Positions 1 through 30,130 of a stretch of 30,130 bases of DNA are shown here, in pieces. Within the stretch, counting starts at the first letter, position 1. Every line of letters begins with the position of its first letter. The position numbers and the translations under genes were made by a program. The notes under the pieces were generated by a model. The model ran no database searches. It worked only from the letters and a program-made list of their open reading frames with translations, and was not told the DNA's origin. Location: positions 1 through 30,130 of IMG/VR virus record IMGVR_UViG_3300026453_000026. One strand, 5' to 3'. The DNA comes from a virus (lineage: Duplodnaviria > Caudoviricetes).

Positions 1-169
1 TATCTTTTGCTTTCATTGAACGTACAACCTCAACAGGCACTTTACAAAATATCTCAATCATCTTAGATTGCACCTCTGCTTCCTTTGTTAAATCTAATTT
101 GTCAAACTCTTGGTATTGCCCTAGAGTGATTTCATTTAACGTTGTTGGTATGCTTAACTTAACTTTCAT
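1..169 (-). CDS. 5' part of the tail assembly chaperone gene (second copy of 28589..29233, cut by window edge)
   Basis: ATG at 169-167 reads MKVKLSIPTTLNEITLGQYQ, same as the ORF starting at 29233. Confidence 0.9.
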   Translation of the reverse strand, partial: MKVKLSIPTTLNEITLGQYQEFDKLDLTKEAEVQSKMIEIFCKVPVEVVRSMKAKD

Positions 170-173
170 ATTA

Positions 174-200
174 ATATATAAACTTTTTAATTTTATTTTA
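174..200 (-). promoter_or_regulatory. Putative late promoter TAAAATA-N12-TTATATAT, 4 nt before ATG 169
   Basis: Same motif and spacing at 1706, 17435, 19716, 21746, 29238. Confidence 0.7.
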
Positions 201-204
201 GTAA

Positions 205-1413
205 CTAAGATACAGTATATTTGCCCCTGTTTGGGTTTTGTAGTTGAAAGCCTACTGCATAACGAACCGCATCTATTAAATGGTTGTATTTGTCTATTGG
301 TGTATTTGACTTGCGTTCTAACCAACGATAGTTATTTAATTCCTTAATTAAGTTAGTGCTATCTGGACTTACTATAATATCATAATCTTGTAATAAGCTA
401 ATGCCATAAGTAACGCTTCCTTGTCCCTTTATACTTGGACGTACATTACAACCCTTTGCTTTTATTTCGCTTAACAGTCTAGGCTCTGCACTATCTCCAA
501 CAATTAAACCCTCTCTAGCGTGTTTTAAATTAAGTTGTGCTATTTGTGACGTGGTTAGTCTTTGTAAGTAGAAACATTCCTTTAAATATATTCGTTTGTT
601 AGAACTATCTATATTAACTTCAACCAATGTACTTGGGTCAGCAGCGAAACCATAATCTTGACCCCATACGCTTACACTTGTTTTTTTAAATTCGCCTACG
701 CTCCAATTATTAAATATAACTCCCTCCGCTTTGTTTAGCCAAGCTCCTAACATTTGCTGTTTATACTTTTCTGGACGTCTTATCTTCATTTGCTCTATTT
801 GCTCTATATAGCTTTTAGATAAGTTGTCTATATTGTCTTGGTACGTTGTATGTATATAAGTTGTATTTTCTTTAACTGTATTGCTCCCCTCTTGAACCCC
901 TCTATCTTCAAAGAAACGTCTATATATAAAATGCTCTTTTGTAGTTGGGTTTAGTATTAATATAATTCTGTTTGGTTTGCCTTGCTGCCTTACTGACAAA
1001 TCAATAGTGTCAAACTTTTGTTCGTCCACTAGCTCTTCTGCTTCATCTACAACCCACGTTGTAATGCCTTGTAAAGATTTAAGGTTTGCTGTCTGGTCAC
1101 CGCTTGATGTTTTAATCCCTCTGAATATTATTTTACTACCTGTCTTTTTGTTTAGTATCTCGTCTTTGGTAATGTGAAAGTCTGCTATTGAGCCGAACTG
1201 CTCTAGCTTGTCTATAAATTCTGGAATGATTGATATGTAAGCTGAGGTTAGCGTGTAACGTGTAAACAGTATCGTGTGACCTTGTTCATATGTTAGCATC
1301 ACTAAAAGGGCGTTTACTGAAAAAGACTTCCCAGAACCACGCCCACCACTTACTATAAAATACCTACTGTAACTATCAACAATAGGCATATATTTCTTTT
1401 TTACTTTAATCAA
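205..1413 (-). CDS. terL: Terminase large subunit (PBSX/SPP1-like)
   Basis: Walker A GGRGSGKS, Walker B VVDEAEEL, coupling motif LNP, nuclease domain GQDYG ... NHLIDAVRY. Confidence 0.95.
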   Translation of the reverse strand: MIKVKKKYMPIVDSYSRYFIVSGGRGSGKSFSVNALLVMLTYEQGHTILFTRYTLTSAYISIIPEFIDKLEQFGSIADFHITKDEILNKKTGSKIIFRGIKTSSGDQTANLKSLQGITTWVVDEAEELVDEQKFDTIDLSVRQQGKPNRIILILNPTTKEHFIYRRFFEDRGVQEGSNTVKENTTYIHTTYQDNIDNLSKSYIEQIEQMKIRRPEKYKQQMLGAWLNKAEGVIFNNWSVGEFKKTSVSVWGQDYGFAADPSTLVEVNIDSSNKRIYLKECFYLQRLTTSQIAQLNLKHAREGLIVGDSAEPRLLSEIKAKGCNVRPSIKGQGSVTYGISLLQDYDIIVSPDSTNLIKELNNYRWLERKSNTPIDKYNHLIDAVRYAVGFQLQNPNRGKYTVS

Positions 1414-2242: not shown

Positions 2243-2250
2243 AATTGTTT

Positions 2251-2394
2251 TTAATTAAATTCTGCGTGTTCTAAACACTCACTACATAAATCTGTTTCTA
2301 GCCATTGAGAAGCACCGCAGCAATTAGAGCCTATGTATTCTTCTGTATGTGGATTGTCTATTGCGTATTGTATTATTTGTTTTGGTGTTTTCAT
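2251..2394 (-). CDS. 47 aa Cys-rich (zinc-binding) small protein, not in ORF track
   Basis: MKTPKQIIQYAIDNPHTEEYIGSNCCGASQWLETDLCSECLEHAEFN; fills the gap between neighbours. Confidence 0.75.
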   Translation of the reverse strand: MKTPKQIIQYAIDNPHTEEYIGSNCCGASQWLETDLCSECLEHAEFN

Positions 2395-3210: not shown

Positions 3211-3423
3211 TTATCTTTTACTACCATTGATTTTTCTTTTTTTTGCTGGTGGGTTACCTCTTGTAGGTGATATCTTTGACCTTATATTTGTTCTGCTATA
3301 ATAGTTTGTTTGTTTCTGTTCGTCACAAGGTATAAATTTAACTTTATCTTTTTCATTGCTTAACTGTGTTAAATTAACCCACTTACCTTTTATTTTTCTC
3401 CATATATCTTTTTTGTCTTTCAT
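3211..3423 (-). CDS. Basic hypothetical protein
   Basis: 70 aa ORF, ATGA overlap with the HNH gene. Confidence 0.6.
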   Translation of the reverse strand: MKDKKDIWRKIKGKWVNLTQLSNEKDKVKFIPCDEQKQTNYYSRTNIRSKISPTRGNPPAKKRKINGSKR

Positions 3424-3953
3424 AATTTTATTTTATTTAATTCGTTTTGATATGCTTGTGCTGCTTCTTTTTCATCTGTAAATAATCCTAGATATTTTAA
3501 TTTACCATTTATATAAATGTGTGATTGCCATTTTTCAATTTTCTTATTCCAACAAACGCCAACATACTTACTTGAACTCTTAATATGTTTTAAATTAGAA
3601 TTTTCCCTTTGAGTTATAATTTCCAGGTTGTATAAATTATTATTTTCACGATTTATGTCAATATGGTTTACTACTAATTTATGTCCACAAGGTTTGTGGT
3701 CAAGAAACGCAGAAGCCACTAATGAATGTACTGTAATTGTTTTCTTTTTATTATCTTTAGATAAATTCACTCCAAAATATTTTGGGCTTGTTATAGTGTT
3801 TTTTAAAACCGTTCCTTTTATTTTTCGACCCCTAATATCAATCCTATCTAAGCTCCTAACGTTCCCTAAATTACTAACTTGATACAAGCCTTCATATTCT
3901 GGTATGTCCTTCCATACTTCTATCCCTAATCTACTTAATGTTTTTGCTATCAT
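3420..3953 (-). CDS. NUMOD4-HNH homing endonuclease with C-terminal AP2-like domain
   Basis: EVWKDIPEYEGLYQVSNLGNVRS (NUMOD4); VHSLVASAF...VNHIDINRENNNLYNLE (HNH); SSKYVGV...YLGLFTDEKEAAQAY (AP2). Confidence 0.92.
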   Translation of the reverse strand: MIAKTLSRLGIEVWKDIPEYEGLYQVSNLGNVRSLDRIDIRGRKIKGTVLKNTITSPKYFGVNLSKDNKKKTITVHSLVASAFLDHKPCGHKLVVNHIDINRENNNLYNLEIITQRENSNLKHIKSSSKYVGVCWNKKIEKWQSHIYINGKLKYLGLFTDEKEAAQAYQNELNKIKL

Positions 3954-3963
3954 TGTTTTTGTT

Positions 3964-4086
3964 TTATAGTAATGCTAATATTCTTAAATCTTCTTGTATG
4001 TCTTTAATCATTTTTAAAGCGTCTTTATAGTCTTGGTTTTCCATAGCTTCAATAACTATGTCTAGGTCATATACAAATCTAATCAT
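3964..4086 (-). CDS. 40 aa helical hypothetical protein, not in ORF track
   Basis: MIRFVYDLDIVIEAMENQDYKDALKMIKDIQEDLRILALL; starts 1 nt after the MTase stop. Confidence 0.65.
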   Translation of the reverse strand: MIRFVYDLDIVIEAMENQDYKDALKMIKDIQEDLRILALL

Positions 4087-5558: not shown

Positions 5559-5830
5559 ATTTCGTATTGTTTTAAATCGTTTTGTAATTTTTCTATTTGT
5601 TCTTTAAGCTGTACTAACTGATTGTTTTTTTCTTCTCGTATTAAACTTATACGTCTTGACAATACTGTATTCTCAACGTTTAAACCGTTTACATATTGAC
5701 CTATTTCTGTCATTCCTTGCACTATGTTTTTTAAGTCTGTGTTTGCTGGTTTCTCTTTACTCCATTGCATAATTAAATTAGCTATGTGATTGAACCATAA
5801 ATTATAAGACTGTTTTTGTAGCGGTGTCAT
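5555..5830 (-). CDS. Hypothetical coiled-coil protein
   Basis: 91 aa ORF with heptad-like C-terminus. Confidence 0.7.
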   Translation of the reverse strand: MTPLQKQSYNLWFNHIANLIMQWSKEKPANTDLKNIVQGMTEIGQYVNGLNVENTVLSRRISLIREEKNNQLVQLKEQIEKLQNDLKQYEI

Positions 5831-6018
5831 TATATACTAGAACCCATTATTAAACCCAGTGTGAACAATAACAAACCTAAAATCAAAATACTTCCTGTTA
5901 TTATAAGATTTCTATATTCTTGTTGTTTACGTTCTTTTTCTTGTAACTCTTTTTTAGTATAAACCTCTATACGGTTTTTTCTAGTTTCAATGTGTAGTCC
6001 TGTTTTTGTCTTTTTCAT
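5830..6018 (-). CDS. Small protein with C-terminal transmembrane helix (likely start 6018 rather than 6045)
   Basis: LIITGSILILGLLLFTLGLIMG; A-rich region before ATG 6018; a promoter-like box overlaps 6045. Confidence 0.7.
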   Translation of the reverse strand: MKKTKTGLHIETRKNRIEVYTKKELQEKERKQQEYRNLIITGSILILGLLLFTLGLIMGSSI

Positions 6019-6041
6019 AATGTTTGTTTTATTAATATACC

Positions 6042-6884: not shown

Positions 6885-7306
6885 AATTCTTTGTATTTAT
6901 ATAAAAGTTCTTTTTTAATTAAATATGCTTTTTTACTTTTAGTATCTCCTTTACCTATAAATTCTGCATACATTAAATTATTGTCTTTTATGCAGTCTTT
7001 TATTTTATCTGTTAAAAACCAATTATAACTATACCCATCATAAATAACCCAAAACTTAGCCTTAGTTGTCATTAATGCTGATGGTTTATTATTAAATTCT
7101 ATTTCTATAACTATATTGTTAGTGTATTTACTTTTTTCATCTGACTTGACTTCAACCCCAAAATTAACCTCTGGGATAAAAATATCGTATTCTTTATAAT
7201 AACCATCTTTAATATAAGCGTTTTTATATTTAGCTTTAATATAATTTAAAACAACGTTCTCGTGGTGTTTACCTCTTTTTAAATCTCTTTTAAAAGTTTG
7301 TATCAT
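6881..7306 (-). CDS. PD-(D/E)XK restriction-endonuclease-like protein
   Basis: GKHHE...YDIFI...VEVKSD...NIVIE pattern. Confidence 0.65.
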   Translation of the reverse strand: MIQTFKRDLKRGKHHENVVLNYIKAKYKNAYIKDGYYKEYDIFIPEVNFGVEVKSDEKSKYTNNIVIEIEFNNKPSALMTTKAKFWVIYDGYSYNWFLTDKIKDCIKDNNLMYAEFIGKGDTKSKKAYLIKKELLYKYKEL

Positions 7307-7794
7307 AACTTGTTTTTTATATGTTTCTTTGCGTTTGTATATGTATTGTAAAGTGAGTAATAACTTATTTTAGTGTTTCTGCTTAACTCTGCAACGCTTA
7401 CGCCCTTAGCGACTATCTCAAATATTTTTTTATCGTACCAATACATTTCGTTTAATATGCTGTCTATATGGTCACGCTGCTTTGCCCATTCAACCTCATC
7501 TATACCGCTTTCTTGTATTTCTTTAAGCTCGTTAATGTCGTTTAAATAAACCTTTTTCTGTCTTAAGCTTGTCTTGTATAAATTTGTATAAATACCTCTT
7601 AGAACTTTGTAGCAATAGTAATGATTTATCTGGTCTTTATAGTAAAGGTCTAAACCTTTTTTTACATCAGCATCAAGCTGAATATACATTTCCATTACAA
7701 CGTCCTCACTCATTGAGGGGTTGCAACCAAAACTTTTTACTATGTTATTCCAGTCGCTATGCTTTTTATAAGCTAGTTCTAAAATTGGTGTCAT
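7303..7794 (-). CDS. Phage-encoded ECF-like RNA polymerase sigma factor
   Basis: Region 2-like SEDVVMEMYIQL; region 4 HTH-like DKKIFEIVAKGVSVAELSRNTKISYYSLYNTYTNAKKHIK; 163 aa. Confidence 0.75.
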   Translation of the reverse strand: MTPILELAYKKHSDWNNIVKSFGCNPSMSEDVVMEMYIQLDADVKKGLDLYYKDQINHYYCYKVLRGIYTNLYKTSLRQKKVYLNDINELKEIQESGIDEVEWAKQRDHIDSILNEMYWYDKKIFEIVAKGVSVAELSRNTKISYYSLYNTYTNAKKHIKNKL

Positions 7795-7798
7795 TTAT

Positions 7799-8698
7799 TT
7801 AATTATTAAAATTTGCCCTAACTTGTTCGTTTGGTTTATTTGGTGTTAGTGTTCTAGGTACAAAGTATTCTAATGGGTCGTATATTTCGCCAACTACAAA
7901 AGGCAAACCAAACTCATTGATACTAAAGCTAAACGTTTCAAAGGCGTAACCCCTAGAACGTTTGCAACTTACTGTTATCCATTCTTTATTTACTGTATTA
8001 ACTTCTAGTTGTATTTGTGTTTCTGTCTTTTTTTCTAAGAAACTACCTAAGTGTCCTGTTGGCTTGTCGCTTCCGTAATTACTATGTATTACCGTTACTA
8101 TATGACAATCATATTTTGCTGATAGTTGCATTATTTTTTGAACACATAAATTGCTCTCTTCTAAATTATTAACGTCTGAAACTAAATCAGCAATCCCGTC
8201 TATAACAACTAAACCGTTTTTACCTTTGTTTTGTTCTAAGCAGTGTTCTATAAATTGTATTCGTTCTTTATACCCTACTGTTCTTAGTGCGTATGTGTGA
8301 TAGCAACCTACTTCTTTAGTATTACTCATATCTTGAACACGCTTAAAAACTCGTTGAGCGTGCCAATGTCCTTGTTCTGTATCAAAGTGCATTAAACAAC
8401 GTCCGTCACGATGTCCTTTAATTTTACCTCCAAAGTTATTGCCACCACTTAAATAAACCGAAGCTAGTAATGAAACAAAGAAGGTTTTTTTTGATTTTGG
8501 GGGAGCTTGTACAAAGCTAAAATTACCATAAGTTCCAATTGGAATTGGCATTGTTATTTCCCCACCTTTTGCTTGTATAGTTTTTTCCCCTAAACTTAAT
8601 GCGGTTGGTGGGTATTCCATAACTGCTGCTGTGTCGATAGTACATTCTTCTGCTATCAACTCCATTAACATATTATGTGTAGTTTGTTCTTCTGTCAT
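7799..8698 (-). CDS. AAA/RecA-fold replicative helicase-like protein (AAA_25/RepA-like)
   Basis: Variant Walker A APPKSKKT, FDTEQG, Walker B VVIDG, VIH...GHLGS. Confidence 0.75.
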   Translation of the reverse strand: MTEEQTTHNMLMELIAEECTIDTAAVMEYPPTALSLGEKTIQAKGGEITMPIPIGTYGNFSFVQAPPKSKKTFFVSLLASVYLSGGNNFGGKIKGHRDGRCLMHFDTEQGHWHAQRVFKRVQDMSNTKEVGCYHTYALRTVGYKERIQFIEHCLEQNKGKNGLVVIDGIADLVSDVNNLEESNLCVQKIMQLSAKYDCHIVTVIHSNYGSDKPTGHLGSFLEKKTETQIQLEVNTVNKEWITVSCKRSRGYAFETFSFSINEFGLPFVVGEIYDPLEYFVPRTLTPNKPNEQVRANFNN

Positions 8699-8699
8699 A

Positions 8700-9079
8700 T
8701 TATTGTATTGTTTTATGTTATTTTCTTATGTTGTATGTTATATTTAGGGTTTAAATTTCTTATTAAGTTTCTTTCTAATATATCTATGATTTTATGATGT
8801 TTTGACCGTTTATCAGTATCTTCATACACTTTAAAATTATTAATTCTTGAAATATAAACTTTATCAATATCTTTAGTTAGTCTATGTGACATTAATCTAT
8901 CTCTAACATAAATTGTTTGACCTACATATATTACTTTATTATTGTTAAATAAAACATATACTGTTTTAATATTATCTCTGCCAAAACAAAAATAAGGTTT
9001 ATTATTTTTTAAATCATATTTAATAAAATCTATTCCGAAATAATTAATAGTATTATTCATTCTGTTATTGTATTGTTTT
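8700..9079. repeat. 15 bp direct repeat TTATTGTATTGTTTT (8700-8714, 9065-9079) flanking the GIY-YIG gene
   Basis: Exact match read directly. Confidence 0.85.
8713..9060 (-). CDS. GIY-YIG endonuclease
   Basis: VYVLF...IYVGQT, RLMSH, LERNLIRNLNPKYN; very AT-rich. Confidence 0.8.
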   Translation of the reverse strand: MNNTINYFGIDFIKYDLKNNKPYFCFGRDNIKTVYVLFNNNKVIYVGQTIYVRDRLMSHRLTKDIDKVYISRINNFKVYEDTDKRSKHHKIIDILERNLIRNLNPKYNIQHKKIT

Positions 9080-9090
9080 GTAAAGGTAAT

Positions 9091-9115
9091 AAAAAAGGCG
9101 GTTATTAAACCGCCC
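9091..9115 (-). terminator. Intrinsic terminator after ssb
   Basis: GGCGGTT-TAAT-AACCGCC then T6 on the minus strand; followed by promoter-like TACCTTTA at 9088-9081. Confidence 0.85.
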
Positions 9116-9122
9116 TAGTTAG

Positions 9123-9422
9123 TTAAAATGGTAAGTCGCTTGTTTCAGCTTCTTGTACCACCTCTTTAGCTTCTTCACGTTGAGCCTTTAAAATTTTACC
9201 GTCAGTCCAAACTACTTGACCGTTGCCAATGTAAGTTCTTGGTTTCTTAGCCTCACGTTCTTCTTGTGTTTGACTAATCATAATCGATGCGTTATTTCCG
9301 TAACGTGTTTCGTCATTTACTGACATTGTAAGGTTTACATAAACCGCTCCGTCTTTTCCAGCAATAAATTTTTCCTTTGGTAATTTATCCACTCGTAGTG
9401 AATAGTTGATAATTGCACTCAT
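9123..9422 (-). CDS. Single-stranded DNA-binding protein-like
   Basis: Small beta-rich protein with acidic DLPF C-terminus, next to the helicase. Confidence 0.65.
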   Translation of the reverse strand: MSAIINYSLRVDKLPKEKFIAGKDGAVYVNLTMSVNDETRYGNNASIMISQTQEEREAKKPRTYIGNGQVVWTDGKILKAQREEAKEVVQEAETSDLPF

Positions 9423-9446
9423 AATTTTACTTGTTTTTAATTGTTA

Positions 9447-9839
9447 TTATTTATTATTATTTTTAAAACTTTCGCTTTCATCTTCGCCAAAAACCCCTTG
9501 TTCGTAAAAGCCTGTTAATTTAAGCACTGCCCTAGACATTGCTCGTTTCTCAGCCATTTCTGCAACGTACCAGCTATTGGTTGAAGAGTCTTTATAGTTT
9601 TCGCCTTTTAAGGCACTACCAAAGGTTTCTATTGTTGCAGCACCCTTATGTGCTATCGCTTTAAATACTGCAAAATTTGGCGCACATTGTACTACTTGAT
9701 ATTGTATTTGTATTTTAGCAACCGCCTGTATTTTATCAATACCACTTCTAGTGATTATTAAATAATGTTGATGTTTAAATACATCGTCTTTTGTTAAGTT
9801 ATATTCTTTGTATAACTCTGTTAATTTTTCTTTGTTCAT
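9447..9839 (-). CDS. Putative single-strand annealing (Rad52/Sak-like) protein
   Basis: EMAEKRAMSRAVL motif; adjacent to ssb. Confidence 0.45.
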   Translation of the reverse strand: MNKEKLTELYKEYNLTKDDVFKHQHYLIITRSGIDKIQAVAKIQIQYQVVQCAPNFAVFKAIAHKGAATIETFGSALKGENYKDSSTNSWYVAEMAEKRAMSRAVLKLTGFYEQGVFGEDESESFKNNNK

Positions 9840-9840
9840 A

Positions 9841-9969
9841 TTAATTTGTTTTGATTTCTATTTGTGCTTCTAAAAATTCTACTCTTTTTTCTAATGCTTC
9901 AATTCTAGCATTTAAGTAGTCTATTGTGTCTGGGCTTGATGCTCTTTTAACGTCCTCTTTATAAGTCAT
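9841..9969 (-). CDS. 42 aa coiled-coil small protein, not in ORF track
   Basis: MTYKEDVKRASSPDTIDYLNARIEALEKRVEFLEAQIEIKTN. Confidence 0.7.
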   Translation of the reverse strand: MTYKEDVKRASSPDTIDYLNARIEALEKRVEFLEAQIEIKTN

Positions 9970-9970
9970 A

Positions 9971-10171
9971 TTAAATTTCTTTAAATAATTGATAAGGACT
10001 ATCTACGTCTAATAAAAATTTTAAATCTAAAACTAAACTATAAGGAATATCTCCTACATATTCATAGTTTTCTAATCTGTCAATAGTAAACCCAACCAAA
10101 TCAGGGTGTTTAATGTTTTCTAAATCAAGGTTTTCACTGTACTCTGGTTTTAATCTTTGTAATAAATTCAT
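9971..10171 (-). CDS. Hypothetical early protein
   Basis: First gene after the promoter at 10199-10206. Confidence 0.7.
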   Translation of the reverse strand: MNLLQRLKPEYSENLDLENIKHPDLVGFTIDRLENYEYVGDIPYSLVLDLKFLLDVDSPYQLFKEI

Positions 10172-10198
10172 AATGTATTGTTTTAATTAATATTAAGG

Positions 10199-10206
10199 CA
10201 AATATA
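10199..10206 (-). promoter_or_regulatory. Bacteroidota -7 promoter TATATTTG (early operon)
   Basis: Exact TAnnTTTG in intergenic DNA downstream of a terminator. Confidence 0.7.
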
Positions 10207-10247
10207 AAACAAATAATTCAATAAAAAAAATATAAACACATTATAAA

Positions 10248-10276
10248 CAAAAAAACCACCCTTTTACAGGTGGCTT
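10248..10276 (-). terminator. Intrinsic terminator
   Basis: GCCACC-TGTAAAAG-GGTGGT followed by a T run. Confidence 0.85.
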
Positions 10277-10316
10277 AATTTGGCTGGTTAGCCTATTTTA
10301 AAACAAAAACAATACA
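10248..10316 (-). ncRNA. Candidate small RNA: U-rich 5' seed, small hairpin, terminator
   Basis: TATATTTG at 10327-10320, then TGTATTGTTTTTGTTTTA, hairpin GGCT-AACC-AGCC, terminator; no ORF. Confidence 0.5.
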
Positions 10317-10329
10317 GTACAAATATACA

Positions 10330-10725
10330 TTAAGTATCTAGTTTTTTAATTAACAATTCATATTTTTCTATTAACATTTCTAAATCTGTATTATCTAGCT
10401 TTACAGTTTTATTAGCTTCAATATGTAGTTCTTCTGCCAAACCGTCATAATAAGTGTTGTCTAAGTTCTTAGAAAATTTATATTGTTCGCCATACCTAAA
10501 CACATTGCAACCAGCACACTGCACCTGGCAATTTTTTTCGTGCCACCTAGTAGAATAATGTTTACGACTTTGAAAATGTCCGTTTTGTAGTTTCTTCCAG
10601 TGGTCTTTTTTTCCACAAGTAAAACATTCAGCCACATCATTAACAGCATATCTACGTCTTATATATATACTAAAAACCTTATCTAACTTATCTACTAATT
10701 TTTTGCGTTTTGTTTTTTTTGCCAT
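10330..10725 (-). CDS. NinG/Rap-like junction endonuclease
   Basis: CFTCG, GHFQSR..STRW..N...QCAGCN zinc/HNH-like pattern. Confidence 0.85.
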   Translation of the reverse strand: MAKKTKRKKLVDKLDKVFSIYIRRRYAVNDVAECFTCGKKDHWKKLQNGHFQSRKHYSTRWHEKNCQVQCAGCNVFRYGEQYKFSKNLDNTYYDGLAEELHIEANKTVKLDNTDLEMLIEKYELLIKKLDT

Positions 10726-10849
10726 TTGATTAGTTCTCCTAAGTCTTATATTTTATTTAACTTTTTATATCTATTTATTTTGTATTTGTTTTTTATGCCT
10801 TTAAGGGCAACAAAACATTTAACTAAATGTCTAGTTTTAATAAAAAATT

Positions 10850-10857
10850 CAAAGTTA
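10850..10857 (-). promoter_or_regulatory. Bacteroidota -7 promoter TAACTTTG
   Basis: Exact TAnnTTTG at the late/early boundary. Confidence 0.55.
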
Positions 10858-10888
10858 TATATTTTATTTTAGAAAAAAAAGAAAAAAA

Positions 10889-11368
10889 CTATTTATTTTT
10901 CCAATGCTTAGTAATTTTCTCTGCTGAACGCATTCCAAAATAACCACCGTAAACCAAGAGTAATAAAGAAGAAAGTAAATCAATCCAGTTAGGGTCTATT
11001 TTAAAGCCCTCTAATGAACTATCTAATATAATATAAATAAACAGTGTAGCGGTTAAAAAAGCAAGTGTTAAAGGTCTTATATTGCGTGTTAAGTAACTTT
11101 CTGTATTGTTATCTGAAACCCACCGCTTTGTGGTTTCTTGCATCTCTATTTTATCAAAGTTTAGTTCTTCTAATAAAAGTTGCTTATCTGCTTCGCTTAA
11201 TTTATCGTCTGTACTAATTTTACTAGCTAAAACCTCTAATGCTTCAATCCCTGTAACGTTACCAGCTATTTTTAAAAGTTCTGGTGCTACTTCTTTGCCT
11301 TGCTTTAATAACCAACGTAAAGCATCGCCTACCCTTGTAGTTCCGTTTTCTTTTTTATACTTACCCAT
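10889..11368 (-). CDS. Holin-like membrane protein (3TM-holin-like)
   Basis: RW..D...RNIRP followed by two hydrophobic helices, YFG.RS.EK; next to the endolysin. Confidence 0.7.
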   Translation of the reverse strand: MGKYKKENGTTRVGDALRWLLKQGKEVAPELLKIAGNVTGIEALEVLASKISTDDKLSEADKQLLLEELNFDKIEMQETTKRWVSDNNTESYLTRNIRPLTLAFLTATLFIYIILDSSLEGFKIDPNWIDLLSSLLLLVYGGYFGMRSAEKITKHWKNK

Positions 11369-11735
11369 TCCAACGTGCTTTTGTTTTTCTTATATCATAA
11401 TGTGTAAAAGTCTGGTACATTCCTAAACCGCCTTGTAATATTTCGCCAGATAGCATAAGGTCATTTAAATAGTCGTAAGTATCTAAAACAGGGTCAAGCC
11501 CTTGAATAACAACATCAGCAGCTTTGCCTAGTAAGTGTTGAGAGTTTACAGAACCACCGACCGCTTTATTATGAGCTTCACATCTATAAGCACTATTAAT
11601 TGTTATAGGCATAGCCACACAATCTCTAACATACTGTAATTGGTTTGCTAGTTTAGTTATATTTACTAAAACATCGTTTGGCATTTCGCAACCGCATTTA
11701 CAATCAAACTCGCTTTTTTTGAAGTTTTTAGTCAT
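11361..11735 (-). CDS. Endolysin, peptidase M15A family
   Basis: NF..SEFDCKCG, SAYRC..HN..VGG..NSQHLLGKAAD, FTHYD. Confidence 0.9.
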   Translation of the reverse strand: MTKNFKKSEFDCKCGCEMPNDVLVNITKLANQLQYVRDCVAMPITINSAYRCEAHNKAVGGSVNSQHLLGKAADVVIQGLDPVLDTYDYLNDLMLSGEILQGGLGMYQTFTHYDIRKTKARWNG

Positions 11736-11886
11736 TCTTTTTTTTGTGCGTTTCGTAAATCTTTTGTGCTGTATATCCTATCGATAAAAGCAATAATATA
11801 ATTTTTAAACTATTTTCTATATGTGTAAAGCTTACCCCTAAAGTAAAAGCATTTAATATTCCTATTTTCAAATCTTGTGGTGTCAT
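11728..11886 (-). CDS. 52 aa holin-like peptide, not in ORF track
   Basis: MTPQDLKIGILNAFTLGVSFTHIENSLKIILLLLSIGYTAQKIYETHKKKND: hydrophobic core, basic tail, directly upstream of the endolysin. Confidence 0.7.
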   Translation of the reverse strand: MTPQDLKIGILNAFTLGVSFTHIENSLKIILLLLSIGYTAQKIYETHKKKND

Positions 11887-12221
11887 TACATTTTATTATT
11901 TTGATAGTCTACACCATAAAAAGAATGGACACCGTTACCGTCAGCAACCGCAACCGCATATGACTTCCAACCGTATGGGTGACTTTCTAAATCTTTCCAA
12001 GCAACATCTAAGTGGTATTTTTCGCTTAATACTGCATCTTTTATTTTATTATCTTCGTCATCGTATTGACTTTGCTCTAAAATTATGTTACCAAGTCTTA
12101 CAACGCAATGCGAGTGTGCTGCATACTCGTTTCCATCATCGTCAATTTCAACCCCTAAAGACTTAATTTTAGCATCAGCGGTTTCTTTATCTATAAAATT
12201 ATATTTCCCTATCTTAATCAT
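11886..12221 (-). CDS. Hypothetical protein (possible fibre-associated)
   Basis: 111 aa ORF after the fibre gene. Confidence 0.7.
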   Translation of the reverse strand: MIKIGKYNFIDKETADAKIKSLGVEIDDDGNEYAAHSHCVVRLGNIILEQSQYDDEDNKIKDAVLSEKYHLDVAWKDLESHPYGWKSYAVAVADGNGVHSFYGVDYQNNKM

Positions 12222-28506: not shown

Positions 28507-29233
28507 TTGAATTTATTTTTTATTTGTCTTGCTTCTATTTCGTTTTTTTCTTTTGTATATGTTAAATACGTCAAGCATTCGTGTACGTTTAATTTAGTGA
28601 TATCTTCAAATCTCGTAATATCTCCGTCAGCGATTGCATAGATTGAATTGTACCAGCCCCATTTGGTTGTGAAGCCAGAAATTGCGCTAAGCTCTCCTCG
28701 TTCTGTTTGCTCGAAGAGTTCAGAATAACTGTCGATAAGTCTTTGCCTAAATTGTAAAAAAAAACAATAGCACCGAACACAGCATCTAAAGGATAGTTCT
28801 TGGCATCTTCGTTTGTATCTGGGTTGTATTCCTTAAGCGTGTATCTTTGCCCTTGCTTTAAATCAATTGGTCTGTATAAAACATTCATAGCTCTATGCAA
28901 ATTATCGTTATCGCCTATAAACGTATCTAAATCCACATACTCCCCAAAACTCATATTTTCTAAGTCTGGTATAAAACCATAATCAATACCATTCATTTGA
29001 AACCTATTTATAAGCTGGTGTTCTGTGTCAAACATATTATTTATAATAACACAAATATCTGTTATATCTTTTGCTTTCATTGAACGTACAACCTCAACAG
29101 GCACTTTACAAAATATCTCAATCATCTTAGATTGCACCTCTGCTTCCTTTGTTAAATCTAATTTGTCAAACTCTTGGTATTGCCCTAGAGTTATTTCATT
29201 TAACGTTGTTGGTATGCTTAACTTAACTTTCAT
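28503..29233 (-). CDS. Tail assembly chaperone, -1 frameshifted long form (~243 aa)
   Basis: -1 frame after T_TTT_TTT (28763-28757) is open for 84 codons, lacks an ATG, and its TGA overlaps the next ATG. Confidence 0.75.
28589..29233 (-). CDS. Tail assembly chaperone, short (0-frame) form, 214 aa
   Basis: Contains the slippery run GTT TTT TTT TAC at codons 157-160. Confidence 0.65.
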   Translation of the reverse strand: MKVKLSIPTTLNEITLGQYQEFDKLDLTKEAEVQSKMIEIFCKVPVEVVRSMKAKDITDICVIINNMFDTEHQLINRFQMNGIDYGFIPDLENMSFGEYVDLDTFIGDNDNLHRAMNVLYRPIDLKQGQRYTLKEYNPDTNEDAKNYPLDAVFGAIVFFYNLGKDLSTVILNSSSKQNEESLAQFLASQPNGAGTIQSMQSLTEILRDLKISLN

Positions 29234-29237
29234 ATTA

Positions 29238-29264
29238 ATATATAAACTTTTTTAATTTATTTTA
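29238..29264 (-). promoter_or_regulatory. Putative late promoter TAAAATA-N12-TTATATAT-TAAT-ATG
   Basis: Shared motif; spacer differs from the copy at 174-200 but boxes and length are kept. Confidence 0.7.
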
Positions 29265-29279
29265 GTAACTATAAGATAC

Positions 29280-29309
29280 AAAAAAACCCCTACATTTCTG
29301 CAAGGGTTA
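29280..29309 (-). terminator. Terminator of the cassette
   Basis: ACCCTTGCA-GAAA-TGTAGGGGT then a T run. Confidence 0.85.
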
Positions 29310-29329
29310 ATTTATTTATTTATTTTTTT

Positions 29330-29581
29330 TTATGCACCTGTATATGTGTAGTTATTATTTTCTTTTAGTTCTTGACCCTTCCACGTTTGATAAAGGTAGT
29401 TTGTTTTTTTAACTCTAAAACTATCTCCTATTATTTTAGTTGGGTTTGGCGTTACTCCATTATTATAATCATATTTGTCAATCTGAACTAATGTGTAAAA
29501 AGATTTAGTTTCTTTGACTAACTCGTAAAATTTAACTGTTGTTCTGTTGTATCCTGTTTCTGTATAAAAAATCTTTGACAT
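29330..29581 (-). CDS. 83 aa accessory protein of unknown function
   Basis: ORF with A-rich start region, own promoter and terminator; GYxxTxxxFYxxV pattern. Confidence 0.8.
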   Translation of the reverse strand: MSKIFYTETGYNRTTVKFYELVKETKSFYTLVQIDKYDYNNGVTPNPTKIIGDSFRVKKTNYLYQTWKGQELKENNNYTYTGA

Positions 29582-29605
29582 AATTGTTATTGTTTTTGTT
29601 CCCTA

Positions 29606-29647
29606 CAAAGATACACCTTTTTTTGAAATAACAAACATTTAATTAAC
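29606..29647 (-). promoter_or_regulatory. Bacteroidota promoter TTTG-N18-TATCTTTG of the cassette
   Basis: -7 box 29613-29606, TTTG at 29635-29632. Confidence 0.75.
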
Positions 29648-29675
29648 TTTTTTTTTATTTTTTTTATTCAACAGG

Positions 29676-30130
29676 TTAAGACACCGTATATTTACCCCTG
29701 TTTGGGTTTTGTAGTTGAAAGCCTACTGCGTAACGAACCGCATCTATTAAATGGTTGTATTTATCTATTGGTGTATTTGACTTGCGTTCTAGCCAACGAT
29801 AGTTATTTAATTCCTTAATTAAGTTTGTACTATCTGGGCTTACTATAATATCATAGTCTTGTAATAAGCTAATGCCATAAGTAACGCTTCCTTGCCCTTT
29901 TATACTTGGACGTACATTACAACCCTTTGCTTTTATTTCGCTTAGTAGTCTAGGCTCTGCACTATCCCCAACAATTAAACCCTCTCTAGCGTGTTTTAAA
30001 TTAAGCTGTGCTATTTGTGAAGTGGTTAGTCTTTGTAAGTAGAAACATTCCTTTAAATAAATACGTTTGTTAGAACTATCTATATTGACCTCAACCAATG
30101 TACTTGGGTCAGCAGCGAAACCATAATCTT
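29676..30130 (-). CDS. terL: 3' part of terminase large subunit, second haplotype (cut by window edge)
   Basis: Protein identical to the C-terminus of 205..1413. Confidence 0.92.
   Translation of the reverse strand, partial: DYGFAADPSTLVEVNIDSSNKRIYLKECFYLQRLTTSQIAQLNLKHAREGLIVGDSAEPRLLSEIKAKGCNVRPSIKGQGSVTYGISLLQDYDIIVSPDSTNLIKELNNYRWLERKSNTPIDKYNHLIDAVRYAVGFQLQNPNRGKYTVS

Follow-up and report, generated by a model that had tools for sequence, protein, structure and literature searches.

Among the closest described systems to the locus considered here is the c4 RNA of the phages P1 and P7, whose target is icd-ant. This RNA (RF01695) is phage-encoded, trans-acting and antisense to genes of its own phage, its antisense nature being drawn from the title of a reference in PMC2864571, and small differences in the immI sequence give rise to P1/P7 heteroimmunity (excerpt of PMC6906374). 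In P4, it is the CI RNA, and not a protein, that shuts off the replication genes of the element by pairing (PMC4825925, in part); this RNA is processed from the transcript that it controls, with premature termination at seqA/seqC. In Bacteroidota, 5'-seed pairing at start regions is used for repression by GibS of Bacteroides thetaiotaomicron, an RNA with a single-stranded 5' seed, small hairpins and an intrinsic terminator (excerpt of PMC7366714). Finally, P22 sar, lambda OOP and aQ, and BTP1 STnc6030 serve phage gene repression or superinfection exclusion (PMC12197685, in part) and are cis-encoded and fully complementary, with one target each.

The DNA analysed, called the window throughout, is one virus record of 30,130 bases. 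Behind the stop codon of its ninG gene lies a cassette composed of a promoter box, a U-rich seed and a terminator, which is conserved among relatives and complementary to sequences at start codons (tags); this complementarity is restricted to early genes and covaries with the seed. Judging from the sequences compared, the unit very probably encodes an antisense RNA with many targets. It would share with c4 and P4 CI the use of a phage-borne RNA against the element's own genes, and it shares with GibS the seed-hairpin-terminator layout. It differs from c4 in that no meaningful Rfam match, to RF01695 or otherwise, was obtained (cut-offs of E 5 for the window and E 1 for 8 diverse loci), in that no icd-antirepressor operon or repressor circuit was found in the scanned window proteins and 196 representatives, and in that the tags stand on many separate early units, in Bacteroidota and not Proteobacteria. 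Unlike P4 CI, it has a stand-alone promoter and terminator, its sites track dispersed start codons, and no integrase was found. GibS, with which no homology is claimed, serves host metabolism, is 145 nt long and has a conserved seed that acts at the start regions of two targets, whereas the seed of the phage unit is hypervariable and co-evolves with the tag set in the same genome.

With a promoter, an intrinsic terminator, no ORF, and a covarying seed complementary to several distant mRNAs, the unit has these features in common with trans-encoded base-pairing sRNAs. No earlier description of such an element was found in the literature covered, which extends neither to subscription journals nor to supplements, and a 2025 review of phage sRNAs contains no mention of "Bacteroid" or "early genes". 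The element could sit unnamed among the 10,006 candidate viral RNAs of PMC10690425 (excerpt). This case contributes a phage family that is apparently non-temperate, replicated covariation of a hypervariable seed, and a test system available in culture.

The unit behind ninG and its conservation

Every gene of the window lies on the minus strand, in the order structural genes, endolysin and holin, ninG, early block and terminase. The early block holds SSB-like, GIY-YIG, AAA_25 helicase-like, sigma-like, exonuclease, methylase, HNH and DnaA-C-like genes, the labels "early" and "late" being assigned by gene content and promoter type. Two genes recur below:

10330..10725, minus strand: ninG/Rap nuclease gene (PHROG 5034, E 6e-27; Pfam NinG)
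7303..7794, minus strand: sigma-70-like gene (Atlas matches of 0.97-1.00 to sigma-70-family clusters)

The sigma-70-like gene, for which no Pfam support was found, is the likely late activator. By capsid and holin, the only cultured relatives are the Nonlabens phages P12024S and P12024L (Inhavirus; capsid identity 32%), so that the host of the window is likely a marine flavobacterium. Other relatives were gathered by five ninG scans of viral contigs, as the best 80 of 264-545 relatives per scan, and their genes were called by a simple ORF rule; searching viral contigs with a degenerate pattern yielded 6 stretches, which were left out of the analysis. Conservation was counted over 150 distinct loci with sequence 3' of the ninG stop. 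In the window, the unit comprises:

10347-10349, minus strand: -33 position of the predicted RNA's promoter, inside the ninG 3' end (from the promoter logo)
10320..10327, minus strand: sigma-A type -7 box TATATTTG of the predicted small RNA gene (from the sequence)
10248..10315, minus strand: predicted 68-nt small RNA (start at G10315 placed from the position of the box)
10297..10315, minus strand: U-rich 5' seed region, lineage-specific
10282..10293, minus strand: small internal hairpin of 4 pairs with a UAACC-type loop (families A, B and C only)
10248..10276, minus strand: intrinsic terminator including the U-tail (hairpin at 10276-10253)

The Flavobacterium sigma-A box spans -12 to -5 (PMC9723704, in part) and, therefore, the predicted start falls on G10315, where conservation among close relatives also begins, and the predicted length is 68 nt. 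No ORF of 40 aa lies inside the unit. A preliminary description of this DNA had listed, after the ninG stop, a promoter box, a small hairpin and a terminator forming a candidate RNA of about 65-70 nt without an ORF, and the box, the hairpin and the terminator are all present. Its term "unstructured" suits the tract only in part, since bases 5-10 in the folding prediction pair weakly with AAAAUA behind the tract (an AU helix), a pairing that is not kept among relatives. Seeds are 55% U and only partly free in folding predictions, with a median unpaired probability of 0.67.

A strict TAnnTTTG box, varying only at its two n positions, occurs within 30 nt of the ninG stop in 112 of the 150 loci and on the other strand in 3, for which reason a plus-strand decoy RNA was rejected. 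A terminator-like hairpin is present in 146/150 loci, and the predicted RNA has a median length of 63 nt. The promoter logo of 90 loci contains TTG at -34 to -32 (T 83%, T 69%, G 54%), although this logo lies inside the ninG 3' end and could partly reflect coding constraint. The earlier remark that there is no clear -33 box thus applies to the window, which has TTA, and not to the family consensus. In the small hairpin, three of the four pairs change on both sides and 95% of cells are paired (28 sequences), while in the terminator 100% are paired (28 sequences, three closest families); the controls for this covariation lean in favour of the structure because it was drawn from the same 28 sequences. 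Altogether, the unit is a conserved promoter-seed-terminator cassette predicted to yield an RNA of about 65 nt. The RNA data (23 runs listed, all with a low share; 8 RNA runs examined) consist of assembled contigs, which are uninformative on transcript ends; one assembled contig of 5.7 kb covers the unit and may be DNA.

The preliminary description had itself allowed that the RNA might be the ninG 3' UTR. The tract could serve as the 3' UTR of the ninG mRNA, or of a lysis-ninG mRNA, whole or processed, with no separate transcript. Two lineages fit this caveat: in 19 of the 55 loci of the held-out set, belonging to families M and N, no box stands beside the ninG stop and the tract follows directly behind it, and in family N a hairpin spans the stop. 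In these box-less families the tract would be a 3' UTR or would need a promoter inside ninG. Moreover, the minus strand from 9120 to 12000 yielded a single terminator, that of the unit, and none between the lysis genes and the unit. For the majority of loci, however, the strict box behind the stop and the TTG consensus argue for a separate transcript, as does the same layout after a holin stop in the P12024 phages, whose annotation lists no ninG. As a general account, the 3' UTR is therefore improbable, and such an origin would alter the biogenesis of the RNA and not its pairing.

In both P12024L and P12024S, the holin stop is immediately followed by a box, a U-rich tract and a terminator (from position 10186 onward in NC_018271). 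Matches to this tract, of 12 and 9 nt, stand before gp24 and before gp07, a gene on the opposite strand, but only 1 of 13 ten-mer matches in P12024S falls in a leader. This likeness is one of layout, not of demonstrated homology, and a reading by eye of 9 loci among the holin relatives of P12024 (L185-L194) revealed no such unit behind the holin. A similar unit in cultured phages of a cultured host (Nonlabens sp. IMCC12024) makes the proposal directly testable.

Two further observations concern the neighbourhood of the unit and its distribution. In the window's family, the holin-ninG gap (10726-10880) has a box of its own, TAACTTTG, together with a long hairpin; in other families the gap is highly AT-rich or repetitive (L157, L160). 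It is a possible replication origin. Furthermore, the full unit is present in a relative (L180:2530-2790) whose 13-kb contig belongs to a metagenome bin assigned to Wocania (Flavobacteriaceae) and may be misbinned.

Tags at the start codons of the window

The seed is complementary to the following sequences, listed with the first early promoter:

10199..10206, minus strand: TATATTTG box of the first early promoter
10174..10184, minus strand: 11-nt tag before the first early gene (9971-10171)
9069..9079, minus strand: 11-nt tag before the GIY-YIG gene (8713-9060), behind a TACCTTTA box
8704..8714, minus strand: 11-nt tag before the AAA_25 helicase-like gene (7799-8698)
6023..6031, minus strand: 9-nt tag before the promoter-led 62-aa gene (5830-6018)
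3952..3966, minus strand: 15-nt tag that extends over the AUG of the HNH gene (3420-3953)
2244..2252, minus strand: weak 9-nt tag before the DnaA-C-like gene (1730-2242)
29588..29600, minus strand: 13-nt tag preceding an 83-aa gene (29330-29581), which lies in an inserted cassette that has a TATCTTTG box and a terminator of its own

Exact matches of at least 11 nt on the mRNA strand number seven, of which five lie at starts; they mark 5 of 27 early starts and none of 25 late ones (Fisher p 0.03). Shuffled seeds give a mean of 0.30 early-start matches of this length and reach five in 5 of 5000 trials. At 9 nt, 8/27 early and 2/25 late starts are matched (p 0.05; 25/5000 shuffles). The duplexes predicted for the five strong targets range from -11 to -16 kcal/mol. 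The core of the preliminary description, one RNA antisense to many early starts with the late ones spared, is supported by these counts, the silencing itself being a predicted consequence. Its seven matches, including a bulged one at 10781-10793 in the ninG leader, were all found again in place, whereas the match before the 62-aa gene was missing from it. The ninG leader did not hold as a target and is not counted, because its match lies 56-68 nt before the ATG within a predicted hairpin and is confined to the seed family of the window. A 10-nt match at 5564-5573 was likewise dropped, as a coincidence at a coding end that is common to other families.

Among orthologues, the tag of the first early gene changes with the seed, and 11 of 19 distinct starts of the 62-aa gene are tagged, as are 3 of 48 starts of the DnaA-C-like gene. 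The AAA_25 helicase-like gene heads a coupled block containing the sigma-like gene, which begins 4 nt after the tagged helicase and is itself untagged, as are all its orthologues (0/97 starts).

The ends of the window (1-657 and 29065-30130) repeat each other with 94-98% identity, and only the right-end copy contains a cassette of about 430 nt (promoter, tag, 83-aa ORF and terminator), between the terminase and a 214-aa gene. These ends may represent two variants in one record, the gained cassette being already tagged. Additionally, in 8713-9095 the GIY-YIG gene stands behind the TACCTTTA box and the tag that precede the helicase in L001, L007 and L010; it is probably an insertion with duplication of the start region, the helicase holding the second copy of the tag. 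Relatives also swap DNA-modification modules in the early region (L233:17335-18240, L127:8408-9310, L048:7267-8469, L010:9061-9756 and L233:18243-18962), which encode Tet/JBP oxygenase, TET-associated glycosyltransferase, alpha-glucosyltransferase, Mom and amino acid:DNA transferase.

Covariation of seeds and start regions across lineages

Both the seeds and the start regions of the first early gene differ between lineages. The pairs of seed and start region are GUAUUGUUUU with AAAACAATAC, UCUUUGUUU with AAACAAAGA, GUCUUUUAA with TTAAAAGAC, GUUCUGUUU with AAACAGAAC, GUAAGUUUU with AAAACTTAC, and GUUAUCAUU with AATGATAAC. Covariation was analysed in a first set of 69 non-redundant loci, each followed by 4.5 kb or more of downstream sequence, in 12 seed families grouped by eye after the sequences had been seen, and in a second, held-out set made up of 55 new loci, whose 10 families include 4 that are kin of earlier ones (start span -25 to +15, seed of 36 nt). 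A raw matrix of 24 automatic clusters is only modestly diagonal (own 0.124, foreign 0.051; own seed best in 5/24) because of promiscuous seeds and split kin, and it was replaced by row- and column-centred tests, in which the main effects of seed and genome are removed.

For the 69 loci, the own-family term gives p 0.0006 (8-mers) and 0.0003 (10-mers) at early starts without the adjacent gene, and p 0.0002 and 0.0003 at the adjacent gene, with no signal at late starts (p 0.82 and 0.84) or internal ATGs (p 0.43 and 0.56). With kin merged into 8 groups, exact p values are 0.011, 0.00035 and 0.007 for 8-, 9- and 10-mers (late 0.94-0.96), and in the 55 held-out loci p is 0.00007, 0.00004 and 0.00002 (late 0.66-0.98). 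Seed-target covariation in relatives, which the preliminary description had proposed as a check, is thus present in both sets.

A blind search for family-specific start motifs, in which each gene family is counted once, returned the seed complement AAAACAG as the top motif of the largest family (30 of 135 gene families against 4 of 340 elsewhere) and the seed complement AAAACAA in the second best-sampled one (24/55 against 64/420). The blind top motif matched the own RNA in these two best-sampled families only, failing in the other nine of 11. Signal is weak beyond the first gene in families E, H, I and J, and absent by exact 9-mers in family M, whose seed pairs across the AUG and first codons and beats every foreign seed in 10/10 loci, one of them narrowly. 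The box-less loci L219-L229, L249, L255 and L264 show this pairing with the AUG and first codons, and not the leader.

It is scarcely credible that all this arises by chance, from U-rich tracts beside terminators meeting the A-rich start regions of Bacteroidota. The high U content of the seeds, the frequent matches of the window's seed type at foreign starts and the coding-end coincidence at 5564-5573 do speak for such encounters. Yet the interaction between own and foreign seeds recurs in two data sets and is absent at late starts and internal ATGs, and diagnostic motifs bearing C or G are family-specific, ACAGAAC occurring at 27/486 starts of F/F2 and at 0/779 others.

The preliminary description had proposed looking for enrichment at early starts, and own 10-mers do reach 3.28 per kb in early start regions against 0.27 in the rest of the early region and 0.03-0.04 on its opposite strand, with a peak 9-20 nt before the ATG; the 1.25 per kb at late start regions is attributed to general A-richness. 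Own 9-mers mark about half of the promoter-led heads (73/156), fewer of the unpromoted gaps (54/366), 6% of the coupled starts (47/801) and one of 22 leaderless starts. At promoter-led heads of both data sets, the own seed matches in 140/293 cases, against 481/5571 (9%) for foreign seeds.

Since the tags cluster just behind sigma-A promoters and the window encodes a DnaA-C-like HTH protein, tags and tract could instead be DNA sites to which a phage protein binds (operators or iterons), with the tract as one inverted copy behind a promoter. In line with this, a G-U wobble test gave no RNA signature (18.5 wobble to 63.5 other mismatches against 50.5 to 188.5, p 0.88). DNA sites are, however, quite unlikely. 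The tags are one-stranded, and their distance from the promoter follows leader length (rho 0.60), whereas that from the ATG barely does (rho -0.16); in family M they shift into the first codons. Moreover, the inverted copy belongs to a unit with covarying hairpins, and tags are missing from leaderless versions of the same helicase genes. The behaviour of the distances and the AUG pairing of family M thus favour action on the mRNA at initiation over a DNA operator.

An orthologous 305-aa gene illustrates both aspects, its tag switching with the seed across families D, O, Q, T and R and being absent wherever a promoter box or U-run immediately precedes the gene; the helicase behaves alike. In relatives, helicase-type genes are either leadered and tagged, or lie 2-4 nt behind a sigma-A box and are untagged, and in some lineages replication may thus have escaped control by the predicted RNA. 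Behind ninG in L233 and L234 the predicted RNA has two seed stretches, the 5' one matching several internal early genes (ATTAACAAATC) and the 3' one the first early gene.

Proposed action, timing and meaning

On the strength of these patterns, it is probable that the predicted RNA pairs in trans and represses the translation of the phage's own early genes. Initiation in F. johnsoniae is promoted by A at -3, -6, -12 and -13 together with low structure (excerpt of PMC6847099). The RNA would cover about -20 to -4, and sometimes the AUG, that is, the A-rich stretch that Flavobacterium ribosomes would need instead of a Shine-Dalgarno sequence, and masking it would block ribosome loading. As the tagged genes mostly head promoter-led, translationally coupled blocks, six or seven such sites would suffice to lower expression across the whole early region. 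Late genes, which would be under the phage sigma-like factor, carry no tag.

The heads of structural blocks in the window carry TATATA a few bases before the ATG (29244, 21752, 20445, 17441 and 180, minus strand), where P12024 has a CGTTA-type motif. This TATATA is a candidate late promoter for the sigma-like gene (7303-7794), and its position is consistent with leaderless late mRNAs.

Pairing with the opposite effect, in which the RNA would guide or free ribosome loading on tagged early mRNAs as a stand-in for the anti-Shine-Dalgarno, is most unlikely. It would suit hosts that lack Shine-Dalgarno pairing (PMC6847099, in part) and the placement of the tags at a Shine-Dalgarno-like distance, 9-20 nt before the ATG, on genes that need de novo initiation. 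Against it, the duplexes cover the AUG in HNH and family M and mask A-rich determinants, and no conserved second domain for ribosome binding is present, the UAACC hairpin being limited to a few families.

Regarding the timing of repression, the unit and the early genes share one promoter type, so that the RNA would accumulate from the start, made by the host sigma-A polymerase from infection onward. As no terminator was found to separate the lysis genes from the unit, transcription of the lysis/ninG region would read through and add RNA late in infection, a route on which the box-less families M and N would rely. If the RNA represses early translation, its most likely use, slightly favoured within this reading, is a delayed brake on early expression in lytic growth; lineage-specific action on superinfecting kin is the main alternative or additional use, and the diversity of seeds fits it. 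The early-to-late switch of the preliminary description, the interpretation of which is partly supported as a whole, is one of two readings of the timing, which the data do not separate.

An immunity carried by RNA alone could also be the main job of the unit, either as a carrier or pseudolysogenic hold or by silencing superinfecting phages of the same seed, with seeds diversifying to escape relatives, in the manner of c4 in P1/P7 and CI in P4. This appears rather doubtful, although it is not exclusive of the early brake. Many seed types with matching tags occur in one phage family, partly interleaved on a quick version of the sigma-gene tree; a host-type promoter permits constant expression; and, with no repressor protein found, the RNA could be the sole repressor. 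However, families M and N, without a box of their own, would draw the RNA from the ninG/late transcript, and among 185,579 bacterial genomes the unit was found in 3 loci only, all on short contigs. Furthermore, no integrase or repressor family was found in the scanned window proteins or among 196 representatives (199 were picked out of 453 families and three of great length dropped), which argues against classical lysogeny; two families do have ParB-N matches, without ParA, and small unannotated proteins could hide integrase or plasmid functions.

A broader reading, somewhat less likely than not, is that of a self-addressed RNA code, in which one tiny RNA would be the sole repressor of the early programme in widespread, apparently lytic marine flavobacterial phages. 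This code, with a hypervariable seed and matching tags on the head of every early unit and on newly gained cassettes, would exploit the lack of Shine-Dalgarno pairing in Bacteroidota and would act both as a developmental timer and as a barcode for the silencing of kin.

Natural pairs of seed and tag offer candidates for orthogonal translation switches in Bacteroidota, a phylum with few tools of this kind. Early shut-off without a repressor and the exclusion of kin are little understood in phages beyond enterobacterial models, and in this abundant marine group one short predicted RNA would address a whole regulon through a co-evolving tag.
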